Shown: in pieces, positions 19,021 to 62,617 of the stretch
Position numbering within the stretch: position 1 is the stretch's first letter
Layout of the letters: each line of letters opens with the position of its first letter
From: Promethearchaeota archaeon
GTDB lineage: Archaea > Asgardarchaeota > Lokiarchaeia > Sigyniarchaeales > SOKP01
Reading direction: 5' to 3'
Assembly: GCA_016839705.1 (NCBI GenBank)
Contig: JAEOTR010000006.1
Location: 36,890 to 100,889 of the forward strand
Length of the DNA: 64,000 nucleotides
Program-made: the position numbers and the translations under genes
The notes under the pieces: generated by a model
The model's database searches: none
The model's input: only the letters and a program-made list of their open reading frames with translations
What the model was told of the DNA's origin: nothing

Positions 19021-19055
19021 ACAACTCAGCCGACCACTTAATTTTAATTTAAATA

Positions 19056-20282: not shown

Positions 20283-20308
20283 TTAATTACCTTTGTATTG
20301 ATACAATT

Positions 20309-20758: not shown

Positions 20759-20764
20759 TTTGCC

Positions 20765-21049: not shown

Positions 21050-21074
21050 TTATTCAACCCAAATTCAATAATCT

Positions 21075-21992: not shown

Positions 21993-22003
21993 TTAACTTT
22001 GCA

Positions 22004-38299: not shown

Positions 38300-39061
38300 T
38301 TAAATTTCGACTGAATTGCTGCCATCAATAACTTTTACATTAGAGATATAAGAGATTTTCTGAATATCTGATAATAATCCTACTTTTGAATCGAGCTTCT
38401 TCGAGATTTCTTCTCCTTTCTTAAAAGATAATAATTTCGATTTTTTCTTGAAAGTGACAATGAAACTAATACGGTTTGTATTCTCATCTATTGAATCTAT
38501 TCCTAACATTGTATAATATTTCAAATGGCGCACGAATATCGGGCTTAAAATCAGAGAATAATCTTCAGAAACGGGAAAATCAAGCTCAATAATATCTTGA
38601 GCTAAGCCTTTAGCTCCAAATTTTCCATAAGTCATGAAGTACATTAAACTACAACCAACTGTGGTAAGCATTATTCCTACCAAATAAAACCGAGTGCCAC
38701 AAGCCATTCCTACAGCCATTACAAAAAAGATAAAACCAACATCCCTAGTTTCTTTAAGGGCATTTCTAAATCTCACAATGGAGAGTGCTCCCACTAATGT
38801 AAATGCTCGGGCAATATCTGTGCCAATGATTATCATAATCATTCCTACAATAACTCCTAACAAAACTAAAGTTTGAGTAAAATTTTGAGAGTATGAAATA
38901 CTTCGATGAGTACCTCGATAGGTTATTCCAATAAGGATTGATAAAATGATACTCCAGAAGAATACAATTATTACGTCAGTAATTTCTATAGGTGATATAA
39001 TTGAACCTAAGCTAAGAAATGAATCTTCAATAAACTTTCTTAGAAAGTCATCTAACCACAT
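38300..39061 (-). CDS. DUF4956-family membrane protein
   Basis: 253-aa ORF. N-terminal hydrophobic segments. The signature LSIVRFRNALKETRDVGFIFFVMAVGMACG is typical of DUF4956. Downstream of the VTC gene. Confidence 0.7.
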   Translation of the reverse strand: MWLDDFLRKFIEDSFLSLGSIISPIEITDVIIVFFWSIILSILIGITYRGTHRSISYSQNFTQTLVLLGVIVGMIMIIIGTDIARAFTLVGALSIVRFRNALKETRDVGFIFFVMAVGMACGTRFYLVGIMLTTVGCSLMYFMTYGKFGAKGLAQDIIELDFPVSEDYSLILSPIFVRHLKYYTMLGIDSIDENTNRISFIVTFKKKSKLLSFKKGEEISKKLDSKVGLLSDIQKISYISNVKVIDGSNSVEI

Positions 39062-39102
39062 AATATGAGAAAAATTTTGTTCTAAATTAAATTTATGAAA
39101 TA

Positions 39103-39858
39103 TTAAATCAAAGCAAAAATCTTTGTTTTTTCTAATCCTGCAGCGAATTTTGAAATCTTATACTGCACACAATCATTTTTTTGAATTATTTTAATAGCCC
39201 ATTTAGGAATAATATTGTTAAATTTTACCTCCATTATACAAATATTTGGAGGAATTATATATCTCGATCCAACCCCGAATCGAAGGTCAAGGTTATGCTT
39301 TCTCACCTTTAAATTCGTATCGAATGTTAAACGAAAGGTTTTTTCAACTCTTGACATATAAGGTTGCCTGTGATAAGATACAACACATACAGGTTTTACA
39401 TTATATTTCTTATAAAGAAACCAAATTTCATCTAAAGTGGACTTATCCTGTGCAGATGCATTTTCATAAAAATTTTTAGCTTCATTGTTATAACTGTCTA
39501 AAATACTTACCGCCTTGTTAAGAGGTACAAATATCCTGCTTTTTGCAACGTTTTCATTTATTTTTTTCTTAATCTCGATAAAAGCGTATTGTTGACTGTC
39601 TCTAGAGTAATTAGGATAATGTCGTATTCTAAGTTTTTTCCTAATTGCTATTCCATTTCTTTTCTCAAGAAAAGAATGTTGGAAATGTGAATCAAAATAC
39701 AAGCTTCTAACCTCATAATTGTAATTATTACGAACATGAGGATCCAATTTCATGAAAGGAGGAATATAAGAAAGTATTCTATCTCGTTCCTCTAATGAAA
39801 TTTGATATTTAATTTCAAATCTATTGAAATATTTTTGAAAGCTCTGGATTTTTTTCAC
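39103..39858 (-). CDS. VTC-domain (polyphosphate polymerase / triphosphate-tunnel) protein
   Basis: 251-aa ORF. RFEIKYQI, VRSLYFDS, KLRIRHY, FIEIKKK, MEVKF: alternating charged beta-strands typical of CYTH/VTC tunnel folds. Confidence 0.7.
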   Translation of the reverse strand: MKKIQSFQKYFNRFEIKYQISLEERDRILSYIPPFMKLDPHVRNNYNYEVRSLYFDSHFQHSFLEKRNGIAIRKKLRIRHYPNYSRDSQQYAFIEIKKKINENVAKSRIFVPLNKAVSILDSYNNEAKNFYENASAQDKSTLDEIWFLYKKYNVKPVCVVSYHRQPYMSRVEKTFRLTFDTNLKVRKHNLDLRFGVGSRYIIPPNICIMEVKFNNIIPKWAIKIIQKNDCVQYKISKFAAGLEKTKIFALI

Positions 39859-39882
39859 CTATTCGATTGTTTGTTTTTTGAT

Positions 39883-42531
39883 TTAAGGTAATTGAGTATA
39901 AACAAATTGAGTACGACCTATTAAATAAGTCAACACTCGGGATTTATCATAGTTAAAATAACTTTCATGAATTATAATGGGGTAACCTACAACAGGATAC
40001 GGATCAGTATAATCGAATGGAATAATTACTGTTGGTTTAATAAAATCAAACCATTGTTCTACTTGTAATATTAATGATGCAGCATTATTTACAATTTCTT
40101 CATGAGAGTCGTAGTATGCATCAACAAAATCTGAATCGGTTATTGCATTATCCCATAACGGTCGTGGACTTGGTGAAATCTGTGCCCAAATGCTGATAGC
40201 ATCATACCAATGTTCATACCCAGAAAGTAATGGTGCATTTCGAAAATCAGGAGCTCCGAAAGCGATCATAGAATTATGCCCCATGTTTAGGGTCTGTTCA
40301 GCATCCCAAGGTAAAAAAATAAAACCATAATGAGGATCAGAATATAAGAAGTAATTATGAGGAAGAAATATATAATCATCCCAATTGCCAATGAAATTGC
40401 TTGCTGCAAAATACCTGGCTAAAAGATCTATATTAGCAACATCTTGAATATTACTCCAATTATAATTAATGTATTGGACGAATTTCTCCAAATCAGAATA
40501 ATCATCTTGTTCTTCATTTGTTCTCAATTCGTAAACTCGACGACCATCCCAGGAAAAATAATTTTTTATACTTGGAAGATTAGCAAGATTAGCGTTAAGA
40601 TCTGTAGTTTTATAAAGATTTCCATTAGGGTTTTTAAAGTTATAGTTTAGGAAGGTCTTATCAATATCCTCTGTAAGTAAATACAACCCTTTGTATTCTC
40701 TAGGTTTAACTATATCTCCATTTTCATCCGTTTCAGTAAGAAAAAGTTTCGCCCAACTAGTTCTTGGGCATGGATATCCGAGATTTTTATAGATTTCATA
40801 ACTCGCCATTTCATTCATAAAGGAATAATCTGTTGGAGCTGCTCGTATATTTAGCCTTCGTAATCCTAAGAATCGTCGATTTTCATTTTCTGGTAGATAA
40901 GAATATTGTAAATCTCCGATATATAATTCCGTTTCGCTAAACTTTAATTTAAAAGAATCTTTGGGATATAAAACATTATAATTAGCACGAACCCTAAACC
41001 CAACATTTTCTATCGAATATTCATCAATTGAAACATCAGCCGGCATAAAGAGACGGTTTGTCCAACGATTACTGTCATGTTTACGAATCATCATATCATC
41101 TAAGTAATCTATTTGAATAACAACATTGACCTCATGGATTTTTTGAGTTGAAAATAATAAAGATGATTTGAAATAATATCTTCTGGCGGTGGGAGTTGAA
41201 AATCCTAATATATTATCATCAGCACGGTAAGGTGATTTAAAATTATCAAAAAATACATTAGGTTGCTCAGTTAAGATGTTATCCAATAAATTACATCTGT
41301 TTATTATCCAGTTTTCAACTGTATCAGTGATATTTTCAACTGAATTATCGTCATTTAAAGATCGAGTAAGTGAATTTTGGATTGGTATGTAAAGTTCTTG
41401 GAAACGATTTATTAGATCATCTAATTTCCAAATATTAGTTCTTAAATAACTCCAACGGTTAATAATATCTGATATAAACCCATCGTTTATCGAAGAATTA
41501 TCAGGAAATAAGAGTCGATGGTATAATTTACTCCAGACTACAGAGTCAATTTGATTTTCACCACTATTTAACCAAAGATCAATAGGGATAGAACCGTGTT
41601 CGGAAAAACCCCAGCATTGTGCAAAATCCCAAGGTAGAAAAAAGAAAACCCCCGAAGTTTTATGGTTATACACCATATAATATGAAGATCCTTCTATAAT
41701 TTCATGACCAACTAATAACCCAAATAATAGGTTATCAATTAAAGTAATATTATCAAATATCGTAAAAATACCATATTCATGGTTGAACAGTTCTTCCTCT
41801 GATGCATTATTAACAAACTCAGTAAGATTAATAGGAATTTGAGAAAAATCAATTGTATTTGGATATAATTGCTCCATTGGAGGATTAGTAGCTGTAGGAT
41901 CTAGATAGAAGTCACCGTTCCAATTATTCGCCTTAAATATCATATCATTTTCCTCGGGATTACTAATATCTTCTTGCTCTAAATTCATAAATTTTCGATC
42001 TATTCTCTCAGAGAGTAAATAGAGACCTTGGTAATTCTCATTTATATAAACTTCTACAAACTTAGATTGCGGAAGTTTACAATAAGAATTGTTATCTTCT
42101 AGCATATTAAAAACATCAAAAGCTAGTTTTGTCCTTAAAGCGTCTAAATTTTTACCAGAAGGTAAAAGAATCCAATCGTCATCATCACGAATTCGAAATA
42201 AATTTTCACTTTGATATAACTCAAAAGAAAAACCCCCATCAGAATCCCTTCTTCTAATTTCGGCAGCTAAATAGTGATTGGCCCATTGAGATTTTACAAA
42301 TTCATTAGAAATCGGAGAAATCTTTATAAAGCATTGTTGAGCAGAATTTGTTACTTCATTTGATACTTTAATATTAATTATTGGTACTTCTGGAGTATAT
42401 GAGATCGAATTTGTAGTATCCTGATAAGAAAAATAGACAAAAGTCGAAATGGTGATAACCGAAATGATGAGGAAAGGAACTAATTCTCTCTTAAGTCGAG
42501 ATGGCTTTAGTTTTTCGAGTTGAACAGACAT
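39883..42531 (-). CDS. CotH-family kinase-like protein with two tandem CotH modules and an N-terminal membrane anchor
   Basis: 882-aa ORF. N-terminal helix LVPFLIISVITISTFVYF. Two copies of the CotH core: VEVYINENYQGLYLLSERIDRKF...FLPWDFAQCWG and EYKGLYLLTEDIDKTF...NWDDY...FLPWDAEQTLN. Confidence 0.75.
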   Translation of the reverse strand: MSVQLEKLKPSRLKRELVPFLIISVITISTFVYFSYQDTTNSISYTPEVPIINIKVSNEVTNSAQQCFIKISPISNEFVKSQWANHYLAAEIRRRDSDGGFSFELYQSENLFRIRDDDDWILLPSGKNLDALRTKLAFDVFNMLEDNNSYCKLPQSKFVEVYINENYQGLYLLSERIDRKFMNLEQEDISNPEENDMIFKANNWNGDFYLDPTATNPPMEQLYPNTIDFSQIPINLTEFVNNASEEELFNHEYGIFTIFDNITLIDNLLFGLLVGHEIIEGSSYYMVYNHKTSGVFFFLPWDFAQCWGFSEHGSIPIDLWLNSGENQIDSVVWSKLYHRLLFPDNSSINDGFISDIINRWSYLRTNIWKLDDLINRFQELYIPIQNSLTRSLNDDNSVENITDTVENWIINRCNLLDNILTEQPNVFFDNFKSPYRADDNILGFSTPTARRYYFKSSLLFSTQKIHEVNVVIQIDYLDDMMIRKHDSNRWTNRLFMPADVSIDEYSIENVGFRVRANYNVLYPKDSFKLKFSETELYIGDLQYSYLPENENRRFLGLRRLNIRAAPTDYSFMNEMASYEIYKNLGYPCPRTSWAKLFLTETDENGDIVKPREYKGLYLLTEDIDKTFLNYNFKNPNGNLYKTTDLNANLANLPSIKNYFSWDGRRVYELRTNEEQDDYSDLEKFVQYINYNWSNIQDVANIDLLARYFAASNFIGNWDDYIFLPHNYFLYSDPHYGFIFLPWDAEQTLNMGHNSMIAFGAPDFRNAPLLSGYEHWYDAISIWAQISPSPRPLWDNAITDSDFVDAYYDSHEEIVNNAASLILQVEQWFDFIKPTVIIPFDYTDPYPVVGYPIIIHESYFNYDKSRVLTYLIGRTQFVYTQLP

Positions 42532-49669: not shown

Positions 49670-52174
49670 TTAACCTTGTCTTCTTTCGTATTCACTTATT
49701 ATGGCGTCAACCTCTTTTAATATCTTACTTGTATCTGGAATCGAATTCAACTGTTCGGTGTAAAGTGGATAGAATTTGTGTAAAATAGTCAATAATTCTG
49801 TCCATGATTTCTGAGCATCTGTTTGTTGAGGAATCCCTTTTTTTAATTGGGACAAAACTCTCTTCTCCTTTTTAGTCTTTAAATTTCTCAAGAAGTTTTT
49901 AGCGACTAAAGCTCGAAATTTTGAATATTCATCAAACCTGAAATTCGCTAATGAATAATTCATATTATCATCAGAGTATGGCAAAAATTTGATTTTTTTA
50001 TCCTCTGGCTCATCAGGGTTATCTACTAAAGTTAATTCAATATCAACCTTACTGATCTGTTCTATCATGGGGTATAATTCCCCAGGATTAATTTTAGTTG
50101 CTGATTCAACCTCACTAGAAATTTCTGAGATAGGAATATAGAGTTCAGGGGTTTTCTCGGGATTTTCAATTCTATAAAGATATTCTTTTTTAAGAAGAGT
50201 AATTATTTGATTTTCTAAACTTGTCGTGAGTTGCTCAGGAGTAAATAATATTGAGGAATCCTTTAATTTTTGATCATATAATTCTTTATCTCTTTGTTTT
50301 TTACTGTAGTCTGTTGTAAGCGAGGAGATAAAGCTATTTTCGGTCACGTCAGATTCCCCGCTCTTCAATAACCTGCTTGTTTTACTTTTTTTTTCTAGAG
50401 TCGTTTCAAAAAGTCTTTCGCTGAGGAATTTTCTGGCCTTTTGTTTCGCTACGCCTTTTTTCTCAAAGCGTTCAGTCACAGAAGTAAAATGAATCATCTT
50501 TATAAGATTTCCAAGATCTTGCTTTTCTTCCGTTATCAAAATATCCATATCTTTGCTTGCTAGTTCTTCGAGAAATTTATAGACATCTCCTTTTGATAGT
50601 CGAGTCGCTTTAATTAATTCTCTCTCAATTACTGCAAGTGGATATGCTTCTCCTCTTCTGATATATTCACTTCTGATAATTTTATAAATTCTCTCCAGAC
50701 TTTTTTCTTCTTCGCTAACTGTTTCTTTTTGTAACCTCATAAACATGGAGGTTTCATGAGGTTTTAAATAGTAGATCAATATTGTACATCCTAAGAAAAA
50801 TATCATGAGAACCGAAATTATATATTTATCAGCCATCAAAAATTCACCTACATCAGTTATAATCTGATTCGGTATTTGACGTGCTAGAGAGAAACGTGTT
50901 AACGTTTGAGCTAATATACATGCCAAACAAAGCAATATTAATCCGTCTTGCTTAAAAATTAATATACGCCAACCTAATGTTTTTCCCGTTTTCCTCACAA
51001 TTCGATATAAGAAATACATAGATATAACAAATTCAAGAATAAAGATATACGTGGCTGCTGAACCTGTTGCCCCTATTGTTGCTTTGAATGCAGTAACAGT
51101 TTCAGGCTGTAAGAGTAAATATATACTTATTTGCATAATCTGAAAGAAAAAGATAAATAATATAATTAGAGAAAAAGTAAAATTATCAAACGTGCCAGCT
51201 CTTCGTGTTTCAGCTCTCCTTCTAGTAGATACAAATTCAAAAATAATAAAGACAAGAGTCATAACTAAACTAAGATAAATCAGAGGCATAATCCTGCGCA
51301 TTTCTGTATTGTATACAGCTACGGCGCTACTTGGATCGAATGCTGCAAAAAAATCTAATGAGAGAAACACCAAAAAACTTCTGTAAAATAATGAAATAAT
51401 AACAAGCACACCTAAAATGAAAAAGGGTATAATAATTGCTAAAAAATATCTTGGAATTGAATACTTTTTAATAAATCTAGCTTCTATTTTTGTTGAGAAT
51501 TTTCGTGAATAAATGTAAAATCTACTACTTAATAGAACTAACCAAATCATTGATAGACTTAATAAATATGTCATAAAATTAAGATCTGTTGAAATATATA
51601 AAAATAGTAAATATAATGCTGTAATTATACCACAATATAATATTAATTGTTTAATCGTAGTTTTTTTTTCAAAGATATAAATTCTTAATTTATCAATACT
51701 AAATAGAAAAGATAATACCAGAAAAAAAGCTACAATCGTGTTAGAAAAAACAAAAGGATTTCCTAACATCAGTACACTAATCCAAGAACTTCCTGGAATA
51801 TTAATTTCTATGATTAACAGTAAAGAATATATAATAAATATTGCATATAATCCAAAAAATTTTCTTTTAAAAGAATATGATTTTGGTTCTTGACCTTTGA
51901 TATAAACTTCTTGATGGGCTATCCTACTGGAATAAAAATCTGATAATTTGTTTTTTGTTTTAGAAGAGAATCTAGCTAATCTGTGCTGTTGTTTTGAAGT
52001 ATAACCCTTAACTTTTCGTTTTAATCCTATTTTACCGGGTTTTGACGTTTTTGGCAATTTTATTTTTGTAGATTTCTTCTTTTCTCCTTTAATTTCAGAC
52101 TTATTTGCGGTATCAGAATTATTTGAGTTTTTTGAAGAATTAGGTTGCTTGCCAGACATATATAAATAAAACAT
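49670..52174 (-). CDS. large polytopic membrane protein with basic N-terminus and ~350-aa cytoplasmic C-terminal region, unknown function
   Basis: 834-aa ORF. Lys/Ser-rich first ~100 aa, about 10 or more hydrophobic helices, then a soluble region with two winged-helix-like segments (LIKATRLSKGDVYKFLEELASKD; ATKINPGELYPMIEQISKVD). Confidence 0.6.
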   Translation of the reverse strand: MFYLYMSGKQPNSSKNSNNSDTANKSEIKGEKKKSTKIKLPKTSKPGKIGLKRKVKGYTSKQQHRLARFSSKTKNKLSDFYSSRIAHQEVYIKGQEPKSYSFKRKFFGLYAIFIIYSLLLIIEINIPGSSWISVLMLGNPFVFSNTIVAFFLVLSFLFSIDKLRIYIFEKKTTIKQLILYCGIITALYLLFLYISTDLNFMTYLLSLSMIWLVLLSSRFYIYSRKFSTKIEARFIKKYSIPRYFLAIIIPFFILGVLVIISLFYRSFLVFLSLDFFAAFDPSSAVAVYNTEMRRIMPLIYLSLVMTLVFIIFEFVSTRRRAETRRAGTFDNFTFSLIILFIFFFQIMQISIYLLLQPETVTAFKATIGATGSAATYIFILEFVISMYFLYRIVRKTGKTLGWRILIFKQDGLILLCLACILAQTLTRFSLARQIPNQIITDVGEFLMADKYIISVLMIFFLGCTILIYYLKPHETSMFMRLQKETVSEEEKSLERIYKIIRSEYIRRGEAYPLAVIERELIKATRLSKGDVYKFLEELASKDMDILITEEKQDLGNLIKMIHFTSVTERFEKKGVAKQKARKFLSERLFETTLEKKSKTSRLLKSGESDVTENSFISSLTTDYSKKQRDKELYDQKLKDSSILFTPEQLTTSLENQIITLLKKEYLYRIENPEKTPELYIPISEISSEVESATKINPGELYPMIEQISKVDIELTLVDNPDEPEDKKIKFLPYSDDNMNYSLANFRFDEYSKFRALVAKNFLRNLKTKKEKRVLSQLKKGIPQQTDAQKSWTELLTILHKFYPLYTEQLNSIPDTSKILKEVDAIISEYERRQG

Positions 52175-52336: not shown

Positions 52337-52615
52337 ATGAAAACTTCTCAAGTAGATAATAAAGAGAATTTAATTGGTTTAGTTAAAAAAGCAATTGAAT
52401 TACTCTGTGAAAAGAATATATCGCGTGTTGTAGTGTTGTCCTCTTATAAAATTAATTCAATTTTAAAAGAAAACTACGGTGTAGATATTAAAGTGGACCG
52501 AATCGGTCGTGTGCTCAGTCGAGTCGCAAAATTAAACCAACTTAAACGTCTAAGCACAAACATCCCTAAATATCGGCTTAATGTTTCAAAAGTTTCCAGC
52601 TTACAATTCTTTTAA
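52337..52615 (+). CDS. hypothetical small protein
   Basis: 92-aa ORF with an ATG start, convergent with the MPN- gene. No motif recognised. Confidence 0.4.
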   Translation: MKTSQVDNKENLIGLVKKAIELLCEKNISRVVVLSSYKINSILKENYGVDIKVDRIGRVLSRVAKLNQLKRLSTNIPKYRLNVSKVSSLQFF

Positions 52616-52620
52616 AAAAA

Positions 52621-53982
52621 TTAGGTTAAATTCCGAAAATCAGTTATTATTTTTTGGAGTTTTTCAAGCAAGATTTTGATTTCTGAATATTTTTCTAGGG
52701 TTTGTTTTAGTTCTGAATCTATTTCTTCAGATTTTTCATGAATTTGTGTTTTAAAAGGAGTCATAACATTTTCTATGTGAACATCAATATTACGGGTTAG
52801 ATTATTAACATTATTGTCGGTCTCTGAGACTAATGAGTTTAATTCTATCGTGATTTCTGCAAGTCTAGAATTTAAATCTGAATTTTTATTTGATATATCC
52901 TGTAGTGTACTAATTTGTTCTTGTAAAGGATTTATGGAAGTTCTAATTTGTTCCAAAACTTTTTCTTTTAGCTCAATTATGAGATCATCTAACTTTTTAG
53001 CAATTTCATTTTTCATTTCTCGTTGTCCATCTACACGTTCATCAATATATTCAGTAATATGTTTTTTAAAAAGGCTTGAAATCTCAATGAATGTACTGTC
53101 GAAATAGTTTTGCACATTTTTTAGTCCATCTGAAACTGTATTCTTTAATTGATTCAATGATCTGCTAATAAATTCCAAACCTTTAAGAGTTCCTTGAGTC
53201 ATATCACCCACCCAAGTATTTAACTGAGATTTATATGCCCCACTGATTGATTCATTCAATTTTTCTATCCCATTATTAAAACCTTCAAAAACATAATTTA
53301 CTTGTGAGGAATAATCCTTAATGCTCTCTTCAACTAAATCTTCCGTCGGCATCGGTATTTCTTGTAATTCTTTTAAAGGTGTTTCCTTCAATTCCTTGAT
53401 TATAACTGGAGATAACCTTTGTGAGTCTTCTACAAATTTTTGTACCCATTTGAAAAAATTTAAATTTGCTGGGATATCGATATCATATGGAACTTCATTA
53501 TAATCATTTGATTTTTTATAATCTTTAAGAGTATAAATTTTAAATCCAAAATCTTTTTCTTTCCCCATGATTGTGTGATCAAATACAATTGCGAAGCCGT
53601 GAGGGTTTTTCTCTGTTTGGAAGAATTTATGGTTTTGAATTGTGATATCGGTAAAATCTAAACCCCAACCTGGCCGAGAAATATACCATCCTATAATTTT
53701 TAACCCCTTTTCTTGATATTGCATATTTAAATCTGCAAAAATTTCAATATCTTCTTTTGTGAATCCCGTAGATACCTGAATTCCATGTTGAAAAGGAATA
53801 ACATTAGTTAAATTAAATTCACCTGTATTTTCATCTTCCTTTCCAATACAAATCCCCATAACCTCAATACTTTCGTCTAAAGCCTCATTGCCAAATCTTA
53901 ACACATGGGCAAACATCCGAATGAATGGGTTTGATTCGATTTTGATTTTTGACATTTTTACCTTATTCTCCTCCTTTTTCAA
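52621..53982 (-). CDS. MPN-minus (degenerate JAMM) domain protein with long C-terminal coiled coil
   Basis: 453-aa ORF, paralogous to the next gene. Conserved Glu (IEVMG) is retained, but the JAMM positions read ISRPGWGLDFTDIT instead of HxHx7SxxD. C-terminal ~270 aa are heptad-rich. An ATG at 53955 (7 nt after the upstream stop, preceded by GGAGGAG) is the likely start. Confidence 0.75.
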   Translation of the reverse strand: MKKEENKVKMSKIKIESNPFIRMFAHVLRFGNEALDESIEVMGICIGKEDENTGEFNLTNVIPFQHGIQVSTGFTKEDIEIFADLNMQYQEKGLKIIGWYISRPGWGLDFTDITIQNHKFFQTEKNPHGFAIVFDHTIMGKEKDFGFKIYTLKDYKKSNDYNEVPYDIDIPANLNFFKWVQKFVEDSQRLSPVIIKELKETPLKELQEIPMPTEDLVEESIKDYSSQVNYVFEGFNNGIEKLNESISGAYKSQLNTWVGDMTQGTLKGLEFISRSLNQLKNTVSDGLKNVQNYFDSTFIEISSLFKKHITEYIDERVDGQREMKNEIAKKLDDLIIELKEKVLEQIRTSINPLQEQISTLQDISNKNSDLNSRLAEITIELNSLVSETDNNVNNLTRNIDVHIENVMTPFKTQIHEKSEEIDSELKQTLEKYSEIKILLEKLQKIITDFRNLT

Positions 53983-55468
53983 GCTTTTCTATTTTTTTTA
54001 ACAAAATCTTCTTCTCAGATCTAAGATCTCCTATAGTTTTTTGAAGTTCTTTATTCTCAGATTGGGTAGAATTTAATTTCTCTTTAATGGGAGTCTTTAA
54101 GCTTTCTAATAAAATTATTGCAGCTTTTAAGTTTGACACATAACCTTTTGTTTCTTTATTTAAATTATTAAGATTGCTTTTCATTCTATTAGTGGATTTA
54201 GAATAGTTTGTCATTACATCTTCCTGTGCTGTATTCAAATTTGTCTGGATGAATTTATCAAGTGATTTATGCTTTTCTGTTAAACCAATCAAAGCATCAC
54301 GACCTTGTTCCAGAGTTTTTATATGATTTGTTAACTTTTGATTAAAATCTAATATTTTTGAGGACAGAGGATTAATGTTTTTGATTATTTGGTCAAATAA
54401 TATCTGCCCTTTTTCTGTAAATAAAGTTGTTATTTGATCTTTGTACTCCTCAATTGATTTACTTACCAAATTTGTAATATTCTCTTTCTCCTTATCAAAT
54501 TCTTCAAGTTTGTCAAATACATTGTCTTCAATTTTTCTTAAATCATTATTTAAATTGTAATTAAAAGATTGTTGTAAATTGATAACCTCATTACTTAATT
54601 TGTCTTTAAGTTCTTTTAAATCATATCGTAATTTGGAATTATTAACCTGAATCCTACTTATAGTATCTTGACCCCATGAATTCATAAAATAAATTAATGG
54701 CTTTATCGAAAGATCTAAGAAACTTTCCATCCCATTTTTCAATATAGAATAAATTTCATTAAAATTAATTTCTCGTAGTTTTACTGTTAGCTGATCTTCT
54801 TCAGGGATGAAAACATCGCTAAATAAATCTACCGTTTCATTTAATTCAAGAATTTGGGGTTCTCCTGTATGAATTTTGTTAATTAATTCCATGAGTTTTA
54901 GATAAAACTCAAGATTATCAGGGGGTTCAACAACAGCATTTACTTCATGATAATCTGATTTCAATGCTAATGTTGGATCGTCTAAATTTTTCTCATCTAA
55001 CCTAAATACTCTAAATCCTAAATCTCCTGGTTTTTCTAAATATGTATGATCAAAGACTATACCTATACCACTTGGGCTTTTTTGCCAAAAAATCTGATTA
55101 AATTTATCAGTTTCGGAAAAAAATATTGAGAGCCCAGGGTGACTATGAAACCATCCTACAGAAAACCAACCAAGATGACCGTACTGCTCATAGATTTTTC
55201 CATCTAGCTCTGCAAATGCTCCTAATTGATCAGGTGTATATTTAACTTCTATTATCCCTCCATGAGAAACAGGCGCTACATCTTCCACAATCACATTTTT
55301 AATCTCACCTTCACCTTCCAGATGCCCAATAAGCGCCCCCATAACTTCACTTAGTTTTTTCTTTTCTTTTTCTAGAATTTTTGAGCCAAACCGTAATACA
55401 TGAAGTAACATCTTATAGTAAGCTAATGGTTTAATTGTTACTATACTATCATCATCCTTTTTCCCCAT
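53963..55468 (-). CDS. MPN-plus (intact JAMM metalloprotease motif) domain protein with long C-terminal coiled coil
   Basis: 501-aa ORF. Glu in SEVMG. HSHPGLSIFFSETD = HxHx7SxxD (55106-55147). C-terminal ~300 aa are heptad-rich. Confidence 0.8.
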   Translation of the reverse strand: MGKKDDDSIVTIKPLAYYKMLLHVLRFGSKILEKEKKKLSEVMGALIGHLEGEGEIKNVIVEDVAPVSHGGIIEVKYTPDQLGAFAELDGKIYEQYGHLGWFSVGWFHSHPGLSIFFSETDKFNQIFWQKSPSGIGIVFDHTYLEKPGDLGFRVFRLDEKNLDDPTLALKSDYHEVNAVVEPPDNLEFYLKLMELINKIHTGEPQILELNETVDLFSDVFIPEEDQLTVKLREINFNEIYSILKNGMESFLDLSIKPLIYFMNSWGQDTISRIQVNNSKLRYDLKELKDKLSNEVINLQQSFNYNLNNDLRKIEDNVFDKLEEFDKEKENITNLVSKSIEEYKDQITTLFTEKGQILFDQIIKNINPLSSKILDFNQKLTNHIKTLEQGRDALIGLTEKHKSLDKFIQTNLNTAQEDVMTNYSKSTNRMKSNLNNLNKETKGYVSNLKAAIILLESLKTPIKEKLNSTQSENKELQKTIGDLRSEKKILLKKIEKLEKGGE

Positions 55469-55848: not shown

Positions 55849-56508
55849 TTATTCATGAGGAAGTGGTTTCCCACAATATGGACAGAATTTCCAATTTAAA
55901 TCTTTACCACAATGTGGACAAAATGCTGACCCTATTGAATTTGGAGGCTCTTCTGCAGCAACACCTTCCTTTGGAATTGATGGTAATTGTCTGGTTGTCT
56001 TTAAGGGAGCAATATTTGATGAAGGGGATTGGATTTCCTCCTTTCTGGCAGCTACTCTTTGTTTAAAAGCTTGTCTTCTCTCGTCTTCAAGATCTTGTTG
56101 ATTTTTCACGTCATCACTTTTCACCCATCCTTGAACTTTGGGTCTTTTTAAAGCATCTTCAGATACTTTATCTAATTGTACATCCTTTATGTCCGAGATA
56201 GGAACCATAGCTTTTCTTTCTTCTTTCCTTTTAATTGCCTGTTTGACTAGGGCTTGGGTTGTCTTCATAACCTGATGTGGGTTGATATTTGGTATTGCTA
56301 CAGTACGGAGAACCCATCCAACGATTAAGTTTTGGTTTGGAAAGCCACCCTCAGTGTCTTCATCCTTATAAACATATGAATCAATTACATCTCTACCTTT
56401 CAGTAATCGTGAAGCCCACTTGTCATTAATCAGACCTAATTGGATCCTGTAGCTAGTACCAGGTACCCCAAGTTCTGATGTTAGAGGAATAAAGCCTTTT
56501 TCCGTCAA
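55849..56508 (-). CDS. protein with unknown N-terminal domain, charged linker and C-terminal zinc ribbon
   Basis: 219-aa ORF. C-terminal CPHCGKDLNWKFCPYCG (two CxxC). K/E/R/Q-rich middle region. Confidence 0.6.
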   Translation of the reverse strand: MTEKGFIPLTSELGVPGTSYRIQLGLINDKWASRLLKGRDVIDSYVYKDEDTEGGFPNQNLIVGWVLRTVAIPNINPHQVMKTTQALVKQAIKRKEERKAMVPISDIKDVQLDKVSEDALKRPKVQGWVKSDDVKNQQDLEDERRQAFKQRVAARKEEIQSPSSNIAPLKTTRQLPSIPKEGVAAEEPPNSIGSAFCPHCGKDLNWKFCPYCGKPLPHE

Positions 56509-56696: not shown

Positions 56697-57665
56697 TTGG
56701 TTGAAAAAATGACGGTTATAATCCCCAAGAAAGTTTATTTAACTATTGTAGCTGCAGCTGTGAGATTTGCTAATGCTCGTATACCAAAAAACGATTGGCT
56801 TGAAGTGAGTGGTATTTTTACAGGAAGAAATGAAGGTGATAATGTTATAGTTTCAGCTGCTTACCCAATTATGCATCAAGAATTAGATAAAGATGCTGTA
56901 ATCGATCAATATAAATGGAGTGATGAAGATTATGAGTCTCTTTATATTATTGATGAAGAAGCATTCTCACGAGATCCTCCTGAATTTGTACTTGGTTGGT
57001 GGCACAGTCATCCTGGATTTAAAGTCATGATGTCACATATTGATATTCGCACTACACTATCTTATCAACAAAGCAATCCTTTAGCACTTTCACTTGTATT
57101 TAATCCAATAAGGTTAATTCGTCAAATTGAAGTTGCAGATAAAAAAGGAGATCCAGATACACAATTAAAAAGCGATCCAGGTTTTAAGATATTCAGACTA
57201 GATAATGTATCTAGTGGTATAGAAGCATCCTATCATCCTGTGGAGTATTCAATTGAAGGGTACGATAGCATGGAACAACTCATAAGTTTAACACAAAAAT
57301 TCATTATAGATGTCACCAACTTGTTTCCAAAGGAGAATGTACCTCAGACTTATGAAAAGATAATTGAGGAACGAATTGAACAACTGAATTCATTATTGTT
57401 GGGAACTGAAGAGTATTTGACAACATTAACTCGACATGGAGAAACTCAACGTATTCCGAGAGTATTAGAAAATCAATCTCAAGAAATCTATAAATTTGTT
57501 GAAGAAACTAATGGACGCATTAATTTCATTAAACAATTCATGGAATACATAGAATATAAAGAAAAAGAAGCAATTATTCCTCAAGTAGAGAAAACTTTAT
57601 CAAAGTGGAGTGGAGTTTTAGCGGACTTGGACAAAAAACTTAAAGAATTATTTAAGAAATTCTAA
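56697..57665 (+). CDS. MPN-plus (intact JAMM) domain protein with shorter helical C-terminus
   Basis: 322-aa ORF. Glu in LEVSG. HSHPGFKVMMSHID = HxHx7SxxD (57003-57044). The track start is TTG; the likely start is the ATG at 56709. Confidence 0.8.
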   Translation: MVEKMTVIIPKKVYLTIVAAAVRFANARIPKNDWLEVSGIFTGRNEGDNVIVSAAYPIMHQELDKDAVIDQYKWSDEDYESLYIIDEEAFSRDPPEFVLGWWHSHPGFKVMMSHIDIRTTLSYQQSNPLALSLVFNPIRLIRQIEVADKKGDPDTQLKSDPGFKIFRLDNVSSGIEASYHPVEYSIEGYDSMEQLISLTQKFIIDVTNLFPKENVPQTYEKIIEERIEQLNSLLLGTEEYLTTLTRHGETQRIPRVLENQSQEIYKFVEETNGRINFIKQFMEYIEYKEKEAIIPQVEKTLSKWSGVLADLDKKLKELFKKF

Positions 57666-57802: not shown

Positions 57803-60007
57803 ATGAAAAAACTTAATTTTCCATTCACAGCTATTCTTGGGCAAGATAAAATGAGGATGGGTTTGATTCTTAACGTGATTGACCCCCAAATAGGGGGGAT
57901 CCTTTTAACTGGCCATCAAGGTACAGGAAAGAGCACTGCTGTTCGAAGTCTTGTAGAATTGATGCCCCAAATAGAAGTCATTAAACAATGTGAATTTTCG
58001 TGTGACCCTCATTCTGATATTGATGATTTGTGTACAAATTGTATAGAAAAAAAAGAAAAAGGTCAAATTGATACCGAACTCCGGGATATGTGGTTAGTTA
58101 ATCTTCCTCTTGGAGTTACTGAAGATATGGTGTGTGGATCATTATCTATTGATAAAGTTCTTACAGAAGGAATAAGAGCTTTACATCCTGGTTTATTAGC
58201 AAAAGCAAATCGAGGAATTTTATATGTAGATGAAATAAATTTACTTCAAGATCATATTGTTGATGTACTTTTAGATTCTGCGGCTTCTGGAGTAAACATA
58301 ATTGAACGAGAGGGAATATCTGTTTCTCACCCTTCAAGATTTGTTTTGGTGGGTAGTATGAATCCAGAAGAAGGTGATTTAAGACCTCAAATTGCAGATC
58401 GTCTCGGTCTAGAAGTTAGAATCAAAGCTCCAAGAGATTCTAAATTAAGAGCAGAGATCACTGAAAGAGTTATTAAATTTGATGATAATCCGAAAGAATT
58501 TATTAAAGAGTTTGATGATGAACAAGAAAAATTAAGACAAAAAATTATAAATGCTCGAAAAGTGTTAAAAGATGTTCAAATCCCTAGTACTGTTTATGAG
58601 TTTGTATCTCAAATTGTAAGTGAATTAGAAATCTTTTCTCAAAGAGCAGATATTACTTTTATAAGATGTGCTCGAGCTCATGCTGCTTTAAACTCTCGAA
58701 AAAATATTATTGAGGAAGATTTAAATGCTGCTATGGATCTTGTATTTGAACATAGAATTCAATCACTCCATTATGAAATGACTCCTGTGGAGATAAAATC
58801 AAAAATTGCTGAAGTTTACGGAAAAATAAAAGAAGCGTATGAGAATACAAATGTACTTCAACCTAACAGAGAAACAGAAGGGCCTTTAAAACATGATAAC
58901 TCTTCGCAAACGGAGTTCAAACGTCAATCTGTTGATCCTGACAAAGTAGATATTCCCGAAACAGAAGAACAAAAGCTTCCACCCCCAAAATATCCTGATA
59001 ATAAGAAACGTAATCCAAAACCCGCTGGTGGCTGGAAGGTGAAGAATATTCCTACTGATGGAGATTTGAAATTTTTTGAGGCCAAGAGCGATTCAATGCC
59101 GTTTATATATCAAATGGAAAAAAAAATGACTTCAATTCTTGACAATATCCGAAAAGACAGAAAAATATCAGATTATGGGGGAAGAGGAATCGGGAGGAGA
59201 ATAAAAATATCTTCCTCCCAGAAAGGAAGGTATGTATCATATAGAACACCTATAAGTGAGCAACCTAAAAGCATTGCATTAGACGCAACAATTAGAAATT
59301 ATTTAAAAAATATGGCATATAACGAGACTGATATAGATTTTCCTATTCACTTTAATAAATATGATTTGAGGGATAAAATATATGAATACCGTGCGCCATT
59401 AGCCTTATTCTTTGTACTCGATAGTTCGGCCTCAATGTATTACGTAATAAAACAAATGACTGACGTAATATTGTCATTACATCGGGAAGGTTATAGGAAA
59501 AGGGATAAAATAGCATTAATTATTTTCCGAGGTAAGGAAGCTGTTGTTCTTCAGAAGCCTACAGTAAATTTTAACTTGGCTGTGAATAAATTAAAGAAAA
59601 TAGAGGGAAAATCATATACTCCCATGGCAGCTGCATTAAAAAAAGCTTCAGATCTCATTAAAGTTGAGCTTTTGAAAGATAGAAATGTCATTCCTATCGT
59701 ATTTGTCTGCAGTGATTGTGGGGCAAATATATCTGTTAAATATCCTGATTTAATCGCTCAAATTGAAACTGACTATGGGTTAATTGCTCACGAATTAAAA
59801 GAATTGACAAAAAAACTATCAAAACAAAAAATCCATATGGTCGTTCTTGAACCAAAGAAATCATATGCTACTCAAGCACTAGGTGTACACACTTATTCTG
59901 CCGAAAAAATAAAAAAGAACTTCAAAAAATATGCCAATGCCCAAATATACAAATTCAATAAATATAATCCTACCTCATTGATTCTTGAATTAAAGAAGAT
60001 TCTATAA
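57803..60007 (+). CDS. ChlI/BchI-type AAA+ ATPase fused to a ChlD-like linker and VWA domain
   Basis: 734-aa ORF. FPFTAILGQD, Walker A GHQGTGKST, Walker B ILYVDEINLL, Cys insert CEFSCDP...LCTNC, Pro/charged linker, MIDAS LDSSASM. Confidence 0.85.
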   Translation: MKKLNFPFTAILGQDKMRMGLILNVIDPQIGGILLTGHQGTGKSTAVRSLVELMPQIEVIKQCEFSCDPHSDIDDLCTNCIEKKEKGQIDTELRDMWLVNLPLGVTEDMVCGSLSIDKVLTEGIRALHPGLLAKANRGILYVDEINLLQDHIVDVLLDSAASGVNIIEREGISVSHPSRFVLVGSMNPEEGDLRPQIADRLGLEVRIKAPRDSKLRAEITERVIKFDDNPKEFIKEFDDEQEKLRQKIINARKVLKDVQIPSTVYEFVSQIVSELEIFSQRADITFIRCARAHAALNSRKNIIEEDLNAAMDLVFEHRIQSLHYEMTPVEIKSKIAEVYGKIKEAYENTNVLQPNRETEGPLKHDNSSQTEFKRQSVDPDKVDIPETEEQKLPPPKYPDNKKRNPKPAGGWKVKNIPTDGDLKFFEAKSDSMPFIYQMEKKMTSILDNIRKDRKISDYGGRGIGRRIKISSSQKGRYVSYRTPISEQPKSIALDATIRNYLKNMAYNETDIDFPIHFNKYDLRDKIYEYRAPLALFFVLDSSASMYYVIKQMTDVILSLHREGYRKRDKIALIIFRGKEAVVLQKPTVNFNLAVNKLKKIEGKSYTPMAAALKKASDLIKVELLKDRNVIPIVFVCSDCGANISVKYPDLIAQIETDYGLIAHELKELTKKLSKQKIHMVVLEPKKSYATQALGVHTYSAEKIKKNFKKYANAQIYKFNKYNPTSLILELKKIL

Positions 60008-60055: not shown

Positions 60056-61303
60056 ATGGAAGATTTAATAAAATCCATTCTTGTTGTAGGATTTAATACA
60101 CGACCATTAACTTACTCCTTGAAGAAGGCTGGATATGAAGTATATGCTGTAGACTTTTTTGGAGATTTAGATCTATATCCAAATGTTAAAGACAGTTTTG
60201 TTCTAACAACGGAGTCAGGAACCAATTATAGTACAATAAAAGACAATTACAGCAAGTTACTGGCAAAATTTGCCATAAAAATGCTGAGAAAATATCCAGA
60301 AATAGATTACTTATTAATTGGTAGTGGTATGGATGACGCATTTGAAGAACGCTTATCCATTTTAAATGAAATAAAAGAAAAGAATTATAGAATAAAAAAT
60401 TTGAATAATGGTTTAAAAACGATCGAAAATGCTCGTAATATTGAAAATATCTATAATTATTTAAAATTCCATAAATTCAAGGTTCCTTTTTCAATACCAT
60501 ACCAAAAAATTAAATTTTTTAAGAACAAACTTCAATTTCCCCTTATTTTTAAGAAATCTAGAAGTGCTGGTGGGATTAATGTATCAAAAGTAGAAAATCT
60601 TGAAGACCTATCAACTTTAAATGAAGTAAAATCATTTAATCCTTCAGATTGGTTGATTCAAGAATACATTGAAGGGATACCTGTTAGTTGTACAACCATT
60701 TCAAATGGGAAAAAATGTGAGGTTATTTCAATAAATCGTCAAATTATTGGTGAAAAACTCCTAAATCCTCCTAAAGAATTTATGTATTGTGGTAACATCG
60801 TACCTGCAGCAGGTTTGACTAAAAAAGATGAGAAGGCAATATCAATGATGTCAAAACTATTAACTCTCGAATTAGGGTTAAAAGGAATTAATGGATTTGA
60901 TTATGTTTTGAGAGATCATTACCCCTATTTAATGGAGATTAATCCAAGAATTCCTGGATCAATCAGTGCATCTGAAGAAAGTCTTAATTTAAACCTTTTA
61001 GATCTCCATATAAAAAGTTTTGATTTGAATCAATGGGATATAGTGAAAAAGTCAATAAGATCTAAAAGGACAACGGATTATACGACCAAACTTATATTTT
61101 TTGCCCCAAAAGAAATAGATAAAATCTTAATCAGAAGAATTAATAACCTAAAATATATTCATGATAAAAGTGAACCAACTAAAACAATATTAAAGGGAGA
61201 ACCTTTATGCACTATTCTATACAAGGCAAATAGTTATGTAGAATCTTATAATGGGGCAAAAAGAATCGTATCTGAAATTAATAAAATTATTGATTTTCAA
61301 TGA
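60056..61303 (+). CDS. ATP-grasp family ligase (COG2232-like)
   Basis: 415-aa ORF. N-terminal ILVVGFNTRPLTYSLKKAGYEVYAVDFFGD, IFKKSRSAGG, LIQEYIEG, LMEINPRIPGS. Ends in TGA followed by TAG. Confidence 0.7.
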   Translation: MEDLIKSILVVGFNTRPLTYSLKKAGYEVYAVDFFGDLDLYPNVKDSFVLTTESGTNYSTIKDNYSKLLAKFAIKMLRKYPEIDYLLIGSGMDDAFEERLSILNEIKEKNYRIKNLNNGLKTIENARNIENIYNYLKFHKFKVPFSIPYQKIKFFKNKLQFPLIFKKSRSAGGINVSKVENLEDLSTLNEVKSFNPSDWLIQEYIEGIPVSCTTISNGKKCEVISINRQIIGEKLLNPPKEFMYCGNIVPAAGLTKKDEKAISMMSKLLTLELGLKGINGFDYVLRDHYPYLMEINPRIPGSISASEESLNLNLLDLHIKSFDLNQWDIVKKSIRSKRTTDYTTKLIFFAPKEIDKILIRRINNLKYIHDKSEPTKTILKGEPLCTILYKANSYVESYNGAKRIVSEINKIIDFQ

Positions 61304-61799
61304 TAGCATTTACTAACAGCTGAAATGCTAAATTTACATTTTCATCTGTTTTAGATGACACTTTTATATAATCCAGAAACCCATATTTCTCCTTAAGAAA
61401 TAACACATCTTCCTCCTCAGCAACGATCAAATCAGTTAAGTCTAATTTAGTTCCTAGAAATATAATTGGTAAATTTGGATCTTGTTTTCTAAAAATATCA
61501 ACCCATTCATCTATATTTCCTAAACTTGATTTATTAGTAAGATCAAAAAGTAATAAAGCCCCATTTGCTCCTGTAGCATAATTTTTTAATATATGGCGAA
61601 AATCATACTGACCAGCAAAATCCCAGAATTGAAGGTCAATTTTTTTTCCTTTGGTATTAAGCGCTTTCCAAAAAAATTCAACTCCTATAGTAGATTTAGT
61701 CTCTGCCATAAATCTTCCCTCAACAAAGCGAATAAGGAGTGTAGTTTTACCAACACCCTCATCTCCTCCAGTAATAATTTTAAAAATTATTGACGACAT
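61287..61799 (-). CDS. Rab-like small GTPase
   Basis: 170-aa ORF. G1 GGDEGVGKTT, switch-I TIGVEF, G3 WDFAGQ, G4 GTKLD, G5 SSKT. Lies 71 nt downstream of the roadblock gene. Confidence 0.85.
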   Translation of the reverse strand: MSSIIFKIITGGDEGVGKTTLLIRFVEGRFMAETKSTIGVEFFWKALNTKGKKIDLQFWDFAGQYDFRHILKNYATGANGALLLFDLTNKSSLGNIDEWVDIFRKQDPNLPIIFLGTKLDLTDLIVAEEEDVLFLKEKYGFLDYIKVSSKTDENVNLAFQLLVNAIIENQ

Positions 61800-61870: not shown

Positions 61871-62617
61871 TTATATAACCTTCTGAATTATTGCTTTTAT
61901 TTTCGCAATATAAAATCCTAATTTTCTCTCATCTGATTCTGGAACGGCAAGTGCTAGGATTCTATTCTCATCTAAATCATGTAAGATAACTGATCCGTTT
62001 TCTCCTCCAATAATAGAATATTCCATTCCACTTTCTAACAAAACTCCAGATAAGTTATATAACGCAGCCACCATAGCTGAAAGAATTGATTCAGGCATTG
62101 TAGATTGAATTTTTATTGGTAATCCATCTTTGGTTATTATTGCTAAGACAAGTGTGTTTGGAATTGCTCTTTTCAAACCCTTAAATATTTCCTCTTTTAA
62201 AATATCAGATGTTTCAATTATAGCATTTATTTGAAGACTTAATTTTTGTAATCTACTAATATGAGAATCTAATCCTTCAAGCTCTGCTAATTCACGATTT
62301 AAATAGATTATCATAGTGATAGATTCTGCTAAAATTGAAAGGACAATTTTCTTCTTTCCTATTATCAAATTATAAGAAACATCCTGATTTAAGCTATCTT
62401 TAAGCATTTTAGAAGAAAGGAATACAAGACTACTATTGGCGGCTGTTACTTCGCCCATTGTCATATTTAAATCCTTTTTAAATACACTTGCGATTTTTGT
62501 GCCTTCAGGAGTTCCAATATTAATACCTATTACAGCAGACGTGGATTCGAGTTCTTTTTCAACTAGCCTGGACACATCTTTTTGTAATTCTTCTAGTATT
62601 TCATCTTGTTTTTCCAT
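61871..62617 (-). CDS. tandem Roadblock/LC7 (MglB-like) domain protein
   Basis: 248-aa ORF with two successive alpha-beta-beta-alpha-beta-beta-beta units (AVIGINIGTPEGTKIASVF...; LVLAIITKDGLPIKIQS...). Confidence 0.65.
   Translation of the reverse strand: MEKQDEILEELQKDVSRLVEKELESTSAVIGINIGTPEGTKIASVFKKDLNMTMGEVTAANSSLVFLSSKMLKDSLNQDVSYNLIIGKKKIVLSILAESITMIIYLNRELAELEGLDSHISRLQKLSLQINAIIETSDILKEEIFKGLKRAIPNTLVLAIITKDGLPIKIQSTMPESILSAMVAALYNLSGVLLESGMEYSIIGGENGSVILHDLDENRILALAVPESDERKLGFYIAKIKAIIQKVI

Follow-up and report, generated by a model that had tools for sequence, protein, structure and literature searches.

A tightly coupled pair of long-tailed MPN paralogues in Asgard archaea, one with an intact JAMM site and one with a conserved pseudo-active site

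In the current study, we characterized two adjacent MPN-domain genes, referred to here as A and B, in a 64,000-nucleotide (nt) stretch of DNA from a Promethearchaeota archaeon (assembly GCA_016839705.1, contig JAEOTR010000006.1, positions 36,890 to 100,889), the whole of which is called the window below. A encodes an MPN+ protein with a JAMM motif and B an MPN− paralogue of the same architecture (Table 1). The proteasome lid, the COP9 signalosome and BRISC/BRCA1-A each have an MPN+/MPN− heterodimer as their catalytic core, and eIF3 contains a related MPN pair; such heterodimers are usually regarded as eukaryotic inventions. An earlier note on this DNA had described A and B as an active/inactive pair with coiled-coil tails, and the open reading frames (ORFs), coordinates and alternative gene junctions that it gave were all found in the sequence as claimed. 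Full-text literature searches returned no paper that describes the pair, the tails or the gene cluster, which supports the note's impression that the pair was undescribed. Homologues of A and of B number in the hundreds each and have the same length, and every named one comes from an Asgard metagenome-assembled genome. They carry the database labels 'Mov34/MPN/PAD-1 family', 'proteasome lid subunit RPN8/RPN11' or hypothetical, and the locus tags of A and B homologues are adjacent in many assemblies.

Table 1. Features of the A/B locus and of related loci (positions in the window unless a locus is named; L numbers denote loci of the species survey; AF2, AlphaFold2; pLDDT, predicted local distance difference test; aa, amino acids)
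Feature	Position	Strand	Basis
Gene A, 501-aa MPN+ (JAMM) protein: MPN head, linker, long helix	53963-55468	-	ORF
A, MPN domain, residues 1-201	54866-55468	-	AF2 secondary structure, pLDDT 70-89; PDB and Foldseek alignments
A, intact JAMM motif HSHPGLSIFFSETD	55106-55147	-	Translation; H108, H110, S118, D121; Glu is E41 in SEVMG
A, low-confidence linker	54746-54865	-	pLDDT <50 at 206-241; invariant E208, N210, E211, F216, P222
A, predicted single long amphipathic helix, ~residues 242-498	53975-54745	-	AF2 helix 236-498; hydrophobic period ~3.6
GGAGG, Shine-Dalgarno-like element for B in the last codons of A (E-K-G-G-E-stop)	53970-53974	-	Sequence
Gene B, 444-aa MPN− paralogue, head-linker-helix like A	52621-53955	-	ORF from ATG at 53955
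B, MPN domain, residues 1-178	53422-53955	-	AF2; Foldseek
B, pseudo-active site ISRPGWGLDFTDIT	53641-53682	-	His to Ile, His to Arg, Ser to Thr, Asp to Thr, plus a new Asp; Glu of IEVMG kept
B, low-confidence linker	53275-53421	-	pLDDT <50 at 190-227; invariant I186, L197, I200, P201
B, predicted single long amphipathic helix, ~residues 228-443	52627-53274	-	AF2 helix 220-443; period ~3.63; last 30 residues highly conserved
Gene C, third MPN+ paralogue, motif HSHPGFKVMMSHID at 57003-57044, shorter helical tail	56697-57665	+	JAB 54.5 bits
219-aa protein with C-terminal double zinc ribbon, immediately upstream of A	55849-56508	-	Pfam Zn_Ribbon_1 and DZR; synteny
734-aa ChlI-type AAA+ ATPase fused to VWA, downstream of C	57803-60007	+	Pfam, NCBIfam; synteny
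415-aa ATP-grasp ligase, last gene of the C operon	60056-61303	+	Pfam ATP-grasp_3 9e-30; synteny
92-aa conserved small gene, convergent with B	52337-52615	+	ORF; in nearly all loci; no Pfam or NCBIfam match
834-aa multi-pass membrane protein with ~370-aa soluble C-terminal region, downstream of the pair	49670-52174	-	ORF; synteny
Frame-breaking insert in C orthologues: L004, L009, L010, L019, L028, L037, L042, L045, L059, L062, L063, L064	e.g. L042:6941-7010	minus

Two MPN proteins with long helical tails

Three lines of analysis agreed on the MPN folds that had been proposed for both proteins. In Pfam, A and B scored 33.3 and 36.2 bits against JAB (PF01398), whose gathering score is 22.5. Single-sequence searches of solved structures with A, B and a third MPN protein of the locus, C, matched CsRpn11, CSN5, BRCC36 and Rpn11, and profiles of the two families extended these matches in the PDB, the A profile (115 sequences) finding CsRpn11 at 1.9e-12, BRCC36 at 2.4e-10 and Rpn11 at 3.4e-10, and the B profile (118 sequences) DrBRCC36 at 2.2e-10, CSN5 at 5.3e-10, Rpn11 at 8.8e-10 and Rpn8 at 3e-3. 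AF2 models built from the family alignments had mean pLDDT values of 76.4 (A) and 74.7 (B), and their heads were recognized by Foldseek as the MPN alpha/beta fold with a probability of 1.00 and a template modelling (TM) score of up to 0.74, to Rpn11. For A, the PDB match listed first was BRCC36 of BRISC/BRCA1-A (6h3c_B, 8.6e-11, with ~300 aligned columns that take in the C-terminal helix), followed by Rpn11 and CSN5. The best match of B was Rpn11 of the Rpn8-Rpn11 heterodimer (4o8x_B, E 1e-11, TM 0.74), and BRCC36 chains were among its top matches. Profile scores of A and B to BRCC36, CSN5 and Rpn11 do not discriminate between these proteins and indicate no specific orthology.

The catalytic motif E...HxHx7Sx2D is present in A and C and missing from B. 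In A, the full JAMM motif noted earlier (SEVMG and HSHPGLSIFFSETD) was confirmed; its columns are invariant among 115 homologues and the catalytic set EHHSD occurs in 119/119 orthologues, so that A retains a complete predicted zinc-isopeptidase site. B keeps the MPN fold with I, R, T and T in place of H, H, S and D; its putative zinc ligands are swapped for a fixed Ile/Leu-Arg-Thr-Thr set together with a new Asp, and B is therefore predicted to be unable to bind the catalytic zinc. The earlier note had every zinc-ligand and catalytic position of B substituted, which holds for the zinc ligands but not for the catalytic Glu (E31 of IEVMG), which is invariant in 118 homologues. Across 83 homologues, with overall identities as low as ~37%, the pseudo-site motif GWY[ILT]SRPGWGLDFT[DE]ITI hardly varies. 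These 83 cluster representatives come from many independent assemblies and B is an intact 444-aa ORF, and a sequencing artefact, an assembly error or a pseudogene was accordingly rejected. That B is a functionless, decaying duplicate is likewise hardly credible: the lost zinc ligands would fit such a history, but the rate of the MPN domain is unrelaxed (see below) and the linker and C-terminal residues are highly conserved, so that this explanation is effectively refuted.

Outside the JAMM motif, H23, H69, D140 and H141 of A (~55046-55402) and H17, H57, D126 and H127 of B (~53573-53907) are invariant in both families. These His and Asp positions (HVLRFG, xHG, FDHT) are kept even in MPN− B and are absent from C, and they might form a second site peculiar to these families, or else a network with a structural role.

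A and B are alignable by BLASTP over their full lengths, tails included (27% identity, E 1e-32). The claim that they are paralogues is thus borne out for the whole proteins, although the paralogue C, which is related to A and B through the MPN domain only, had been overlooked. Following the head and linker, each AF2 model consists of one unbroken helix. The tails had been called heptad-rich; the hydrophobicity spectrum of their alignment columns, however, peaks at 3.62 residues in A and 3.63 in B with little power at 3.5, and a canonical heptad coiled coil was rejected on this ground. The predicted helices are hendecad-like or plainly amphipathic, and their ~3.6-residue period explains why they match Apolipoprotein, MCP and designed-bundle profiles.

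These properties raise the possibility that the tails are apolipoprotein- or perilipin-like helices lying on a membrane surface, which would bring the MPN heads to the membrane beside the conserved 834-aa membrane protein, as parts of a membrane-associated deconjugation or processing system, an arrangement that would be compatible with heterodimerisation. The period of 3.62-3.63 rather than 3.5, the matches to Pfam Apolipoprotein and to apolipoprotein A-IV/A-I in the PDB (E 4e-9 to 2e-7) and the multi-pass 834-aa membrane protein (TM834) encoded as a conserved neighbour all speak for it. On the other hand, apolipoprotein matches are typical of compositional or periodic bias and came together with matches to MCP and designed bundles, AF2 predicts a single straight helix, which is also what it gives for monomers of coiled-coil proteins, and neither A nor B covaries with TM834 (partial r -0.29 and -0.34, respectively, in the analysis described below). 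We consider membrane-surface tails unlikely.

Coupling of A and B and the history of the MPN− state

The TAA stop codon of A (53965-53963) is followed after a 7-nt gap by the ATG of B, whereas a TTG start at 53982 would give a 20-nt overlap and a B protein of 453 aa; an identical database protein is annotated as 444 aa, i.e., with the ATG start. We surveyed this arrangement in one genome per species of the Genome Taxonomy Database (GTDB), which returned 61 Asgard loci. In all 59 loci assessed, B follows A, and the first start codon in the B frame lies between -26 and +15 nt from the stop of A, with a mode of +6 (27 loci). A Shine-Dalgarno-like purine run within the last codons of A, at most 20 nt from the start of B, was found in 57/59 loci. 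In the window, the conserved C-terminal residues E-K-G-G-E of A (53963-53980) are encoded by this run. Since the same codons also serve as the ribosome-binding site of B, they are under a dual constraint in most species. Two loci are irregular: L057 carries ~6.1 kb between A and B and is the only locus in which the two are separated, and in L047 gene A is broken into two ORFs.

To compare evolutionary rates, pairwise distance matrices of the cluster proteins were correlated. Across 40 loci, the A-B correlation was 0.95 raw and 0.92 once the mean of five further proteins of the cluster had been regressed out (partial r), and the next best gene pair reached 0.61. When C was included (31 loci), the partial r was 0.91 for A-B, 0.04 for A-C and 0.02 for B-C, which rejects C in place of A as the partner of B. 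In the same 31 loci, the heads of A and B correlated at 0.75 and their tails at 0.80, as compared to 0.89 for the MPN domain and tail of A itself. In evolutionary rate, A and B thus behave as a single unit, like two domains of one protein, and C evolves apart from them. The expectation that the pair would be conserved and co-varying in relatives was therefore borne out, with tight coupling in ~60 Asgard species and a covariation far above that of other gene pairs in the cluster.

The inactive state of B has a more complicated history. In a neighbour-joining (NJ) tree of 239 homologues, rooted with C, the B clade comprises 119 proteins, 83 of which carry the MPN− signature E[ILT]RTT; 11 are partly degenerate, with the first His lost and Asp replaced by Glu or Ala, and 25 are intact, the basal ones among them. 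Counted by GTDB species, B is MPN− in ~15, partly degenerate in ~8 and intact in ~33, so B orthologues do not share the inactive state throughout. Active/inactive pairing, which the earlier note named as the organising principle of the eukaryotic pairs, is consequently not that of this family (83/119 B proteins, ~15/~56 species). Since A is always intact, as is B in the basal proteins and in most species, the family began as an MPN+/MPN+ pair and the MPN− state is derived.

Two MPN− clades could be distinguished. Clade I consists of the window and L006-L015 and has 99-100% bootstrap support in the trees of A, B, TM834 and the concatenated neighbours. Clade II (L019, L020, L034, L041 and L055; 100% support in the B tree) is nested with MPN+ genomes in another species group. 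In NJ trees of A, B and the concatenated neighbours, clades I and II never formed one split (0/100 bootstraps), and a single origin of the MPN− state was rejected. Nevertheless, both clades carry the same motif, GWY[IL]SRPGWGLDFT[DE][IV]TI, and are 85-91% identical over residues 86-110 as opposed to 25-50% in the flanks. The flanks of the clade II pseudo-site follow the species tree and resemble those of its MPN+ sisters; the motif of these sisters is GYYHSHPSWGLYLSESD, with differences at 9/18 positions. A recent transfer of the patch as DNA was rejected, because third-codon-position identity (0.57) equals the background (0.57). The shared pseudo-site may reflect convergence, ancient patch conversion or differential loss from an old B+/B− pair. 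Partial decay of the B motif is a third instance of motif loss beside clades I and II. Relative to neighbouring genes, the MPN domain of B evolves at 1.21-1.23x in the MPN− clades and 1.14x in MPN+ clades, indicating that constraint was not relaxed when the metal site was lost. Whatever its origin, the E[ILT]RTT-type pseudo-site is selected, and on these trees the MPN− state of B is a secondary specialisation within Lokiarchaeia-type lineages that is under purifying selection. Its near-invariance in many assemblies also disposes of the worry that the degenerate motif was a sequencing artefact.

These results bear on whether A and B act together at all. The two could act separately, each forming its own homo-oligomeric coiled coil, with A as a lone deconjugating enzyme and B neofunctionalised, for example as a dead receptor that takes up a ubiquitin-like (Ubl) tail or peptide in its remodelled cleft. 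Such a division of labour would be in keeping with the intact site of B in most species, which suggests an independent catalytic life, with a pseudo-site that is a specific, strongly conserved alternative configuration in which the Glu is kept, and with the ~40-residue difference in tail length. It fails to account, however, for an A-B covariation as strong as that within one protein and absent for A-C and B-C, or for a stop-start coupling so strictly conserved that the genes are apart in L057 alone, and we regard separate action as rather unlikely.

The surrounding cluster and the rest of the window

C lies 1.2 kb upstream of A and is transcribed divergently, most likely from the ATG at 56709; it heads an operon whose position is conserved in ~55 loci, and in structure searches it matched CSN5 (2e-9) and Rpn11 (1e-8). 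The wider cluster has a near-invariant order: Roadblock / ATP-grasp / ChlI-AAA+-VWA / C / zinc ribbon / A / B / 92-aa gene / ~800-aa membrane protein / (PALP enzyme) / P-type ATPase. It persists in loci whose A and B share only 35-45% identity with the window copies. The unrelated P-type ATPase and PALP enzyme genes also keep their positions, and general synteny is high in the group, so that the adjacency of the outer cluster genes says little about function. The same gene order as in records titled Promethearchaeia was seen in the JBHL... assemblies (L008, L012, L017, L029, L030, L041, L042, L045, L054, L057, L061 and L066), whose B proteins are 37-65% identical to that of the window and whose records are titled Hodarchaeota, Thorarchaeota, Odinarchaeota or Hermodarchaeota; the class-level labels of these records may be unreliable.

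Little could be assigned to the neighbours individually. The AAA+ part of the 734-aa protein is very near true ChlI (structures, E 4e-98). No equivalog or diagnostic family assignment was found for the ATP-grasp protein, a PDB sequence search with the zinc-ribbon protein gave no relative, and searches of Pfam and NCBIfam with the membrane protein, and of the PDB with its soluble region, gave no match. From synteny, the zinc-ribbon protein and the ChlI-AAA+/VWA protein would be functionally linked to A and B, and the ATP-grasp ligase may be so as well. The cluster does not appear to be an anti-phage defence system, since PADLOC recognised no system and returned only coiled-coil noise (ZorA, LmuB tails) and, for C, generic JAB matches.

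Among the 50 ORFs of at least 100 aa and one 92-aa ORF in the window, we found no ubiquitin, E1 (ThiF), E2 (UQ_con), RING or PCI protein. A ubiquitin-operon deubiquitinase and a PCI-MPN complex were rejected as identities for the pair on these grounds, and the NCBIfam desampylase model reached 13.7 bits against a cut-off of 130 bits. The only ubiquitin-fold protein with a terminal GG detected in the window is a 94-aa MoaD-family protein (20765-21049, minus strand) with a weak SAMP1 match; it belongs to a molybdopterin cofactor operon (17207-22432, minus strand) that also holds two MoeA genes, a MoCF_biosynth-domain gene, MoaE, MoaA and MoaC.

It is conceivable, then, that A, B and C are not Ubl isopeptidases and instead process peptide or amino-acid modifications made by the ATP-grasp ligase, or a substrate handled by the ChlI-AAA+/VWA protein, in a self-contained tagging/de-tagging or maturation system. 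Besides the lack of nearby Ubl machinery in the window, this idea draws on the invariant synteny of the ATP-grasp, AAA+/VWA, C, zinc-ribbon, A and B genes in ~55 species diverged to 35-45% identity, and on covariation of A and B with the ATP-grasp protein (partial r ~0.6) and of C with the AAA+/VWA protein (0.48, 31 loci). Adjacency by itself is nevertheless weak where unrelated genes hold position too, the ATP-grasp protein has no diagnostic family, and the AAA+ part is so near true ChlI that it could be an ordinary chelatase subunit. Such a system therefore seems quite unlikely. A broader proposal, which we hold to be equally doubtful, would unite both divergent operons (zinc ribbon, A and B; C, ChlI-AAA+/VWA and ATP-grasp), and perhaps the 834-aa membrane protein, in one Asgard-specific machine for ATP-driven tagging and de-tagging or substrate processing. 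In that machine, a stalked MPN+/MPN(−) dimer and the MPN+ protein C would be coupled to an AAA+ motor with VWA and to a ligase; the combination of MPN pair, VWA and AAA+ would parallel the proteasome lid and base or BRISC, independently evolved, and B would have been driven repeatedly to the same pseudo-active-site solution.

An additional feature of gene C was observed in related loci. In 12/54 orthologues, from different studies, a frame-breaking insert of 30-32 nt occurs at an identical position inside the JAMM motif (HSHPGF / KVMMSHID); the window C is insert-free at the homologous site (56997-57035). The insert region folds as a bulge-helix-bulge (BHB): an outer exon-exon helix is followed by a 4-bp central helix formed by exon GGCU and insert AGCU, then by a bulge of 3 nt on the 5' strand and an inner hairpin, and the 3' strand has an A-rich bulge. 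Pairing of the central helix is kept in 12/12 sequences, with two compensatory C-G to U-A changes, and changes on both sides occur at 8/10 pairs of the hairpin. The motif is canonical in seven sequences and has an enlarged 5' bulge in five. In sequences checked by hand, cuts two nt 3' of each strand of the central helix restore GGC-UUY-AAR-GUN (G-F-K-V) in frame. BHB motifs, in which two 3-nt bulges are separated by a 4-nt helix, are substrates of archaeal splicing endonucleases, and BHB introns occur in a few crenarchaeal pre-mRNAs, such as that of cbf5 (PMC6379350; PMC2738675). Asgard archaea possess a broad-specificity (alpha-beta)2 splicing endonuclease (PMC5829648). The insert is thus probably an mRNA mini-intron of the splicing-endonuclease type; our literature searches found no report of BHB introns in Asgard mRNAs.

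Elsewhere in the window, two Ras-family small GTPases and a Roadblock/LC7-domain protein are encoded at 9650-10225, 61287-61799 and 61871-62617 (all minus strand), and the Roadblock gene stays beside the MPN cluster in most species. Proteins of both kinds are typical eukaryote-like signature proteins of Asgard archaea. A separate AAA+ ATPase (AAA_5/AAA_3) and VWA gene pair at 12371-14352 (minus strand) is positionally unrelated to the MPN cluster. At 38300-42531 (minus strand), a gene for an 882-aa CotH-kinase-domain protein lies beside genes for VTC-domain and DUF4956 proteins, and together these may form a polyphosphate-related cluster. An Rfam scan of the window gave no match, and its composition is AT-rich (~31% GC). 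Proteins encoded in it match metagenome-assembled genomes named Promethearchaeota or Lokiarchaeota.

A candidate MPN+/MPN− complex and its relation to known systems

Taking the evidence on the pair together, we propose, at roughly even odds, that A and B form a co-translated hetero-oligomeric JAMM/MPN complex in which A is catalytic, B is a dedicated non-catalytic partner and the helices make up a stalk. The two arose by tandem duplication long ago, and a single bicistronic message would serve for the synthesis of both. In the lineage of the window, catalysis would fall to A. B would pair with it through the heads as well as along the amphipathic helices of 220-260 residues, and would position A, regulate it or supply substrate binding to it, in the role that Rpn8, CSN6 and Abraxas have towards Rpn11, CSN5 and BRCC36. 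The eukaryotic MPN− proteins of this type that have been characterised are all known as obligate partners of MPN+ paralogues. The long helices could act as a rigid stalk, ~30-40 nm in length if straight, that holds the heads at a distance from any partner bound at the conserved C-terminal ends, and the conserved acidic linker motifs and C-terminal residues may be docking sites. More speculatively, the substrate might carry an isopeptide- or peptide-linked tag, either a ubiquitin/SAMP-like protein or a product of the ATP-grasp ligase, and the pair may cooperate with the divergent C, ChlI-AAA+/VWA and ATP-grasp genes.

Several observations weigh against this proposal. B is still MPN+ in most species, and the family as a whole does not depend on an inactive partner. 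Genes for Ubl, E1, E2, RING and PCI proteins are absent near the pair within the window, where the sole small ORF ending in GG is MoaD, in the molybdopterin operon 32 kb away. The A-B covariation values lack independence and owe something to rate shifts at the level of clades, and the covariation could reflect shared function, or the shared composition of paralogous tails, rather than contact. The tail of A is ~40 residues longer than that of B, the tails match apolipoprotein A-I/A-IV profiles, and a period of ~3.6 is compatible with hendecad bundles and equally with amphipathic helices at a lipid surface. Furthermore, the AF2 models are of single chains and are uninformative on an A-B interface.

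Among known systems, BRCC36 with Abraxas or ABRO1 (KIAA0157), in BRISC and BRCA1-A, likewise joins an MPN+ protein to an MPN− partner and places a C-terminal helix after an N-terminal MPN domain. BRISC also contains a VWA-domain protein, MERIT40, which may be compared with the VWA protein in the neighbourhood of A and B. The A/B tails, however, are hendecad-like and, at 220-260 residues, several times the length of the helix visible in the matched 238-262-residue BRCC36 chains; the VWA domain of the A/B cluster is fused to a ChlI AAA+ motor, a UEV/BRE-like protein was not found, and the MPN− state of B arose inside Lokiarchaeia-type lineages. Rpn11-Rpn8 of the proteasome lid and CSN5-CSN6 of the COP9 signalosome are also active/inactive MPN paralogues derived from duplication, but they reside in PCI-MPN assemblies and are joined by short C-terminal helical bundles, whereas no PCI gene was found in the window. 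In the eukaryotic pairs the inactive partner is fixed; in A/B it is lineage-specific. The archaeal MPN+ enzymes with the catalytic motif of A, namely the Rpn11-like protein of Caldiarchaeum subterraneum (CsRpn11; 6FJV/6FJU) and the haloarchaeal desampylase HvJAMM1, are short single-domain proteins (155-228 residues in structures), in contrast to A and B, which at 501 and 444 aa have 270-300 extra residues and are paired. CsRpn11 is encoded in an operon with ubiquitin, E1 and E2 (PMC6043591), and A and B have no Ubl genes nearby in the window. Given the undiscriminating scores, the lack of detected PCI or UEV partners and the unfixed inactive state, we do not assign A/B to Rpn11-Rpn8, CSN5-CSN6 or BRCC36-Abraxas. 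The earlier view of A/B as a prokaryotic version of the eukaryotic design is upheld as far as the parallel goes; the pair is no forerunner, since its MPN− state was derived inside Lokiarchaeia-type lineages. A/B is real and apparently an undescribed convergent variant of the MPN+/MPN− design, one that arose in parallel and is not ancestral.

The A/B family offers a natural series toward an MPN pseudoenzyme partner, from pairs in which both members are active, through pairs in which one is partly decayed, to pairs in which one has a fixed, selected pseudo-site. The recurrence of one pseudo-site in two separate clades is in itself a problem in pseudoenzyme evolution. If the proposed complex of A and B is real, it would reveal how an MPN partner comes to be inactive, and why, in an experimentally tractable setting free of the complexity of eukaryotic assemblies, and it would add a new module to the protein-modification machinery of Asgard archaea.

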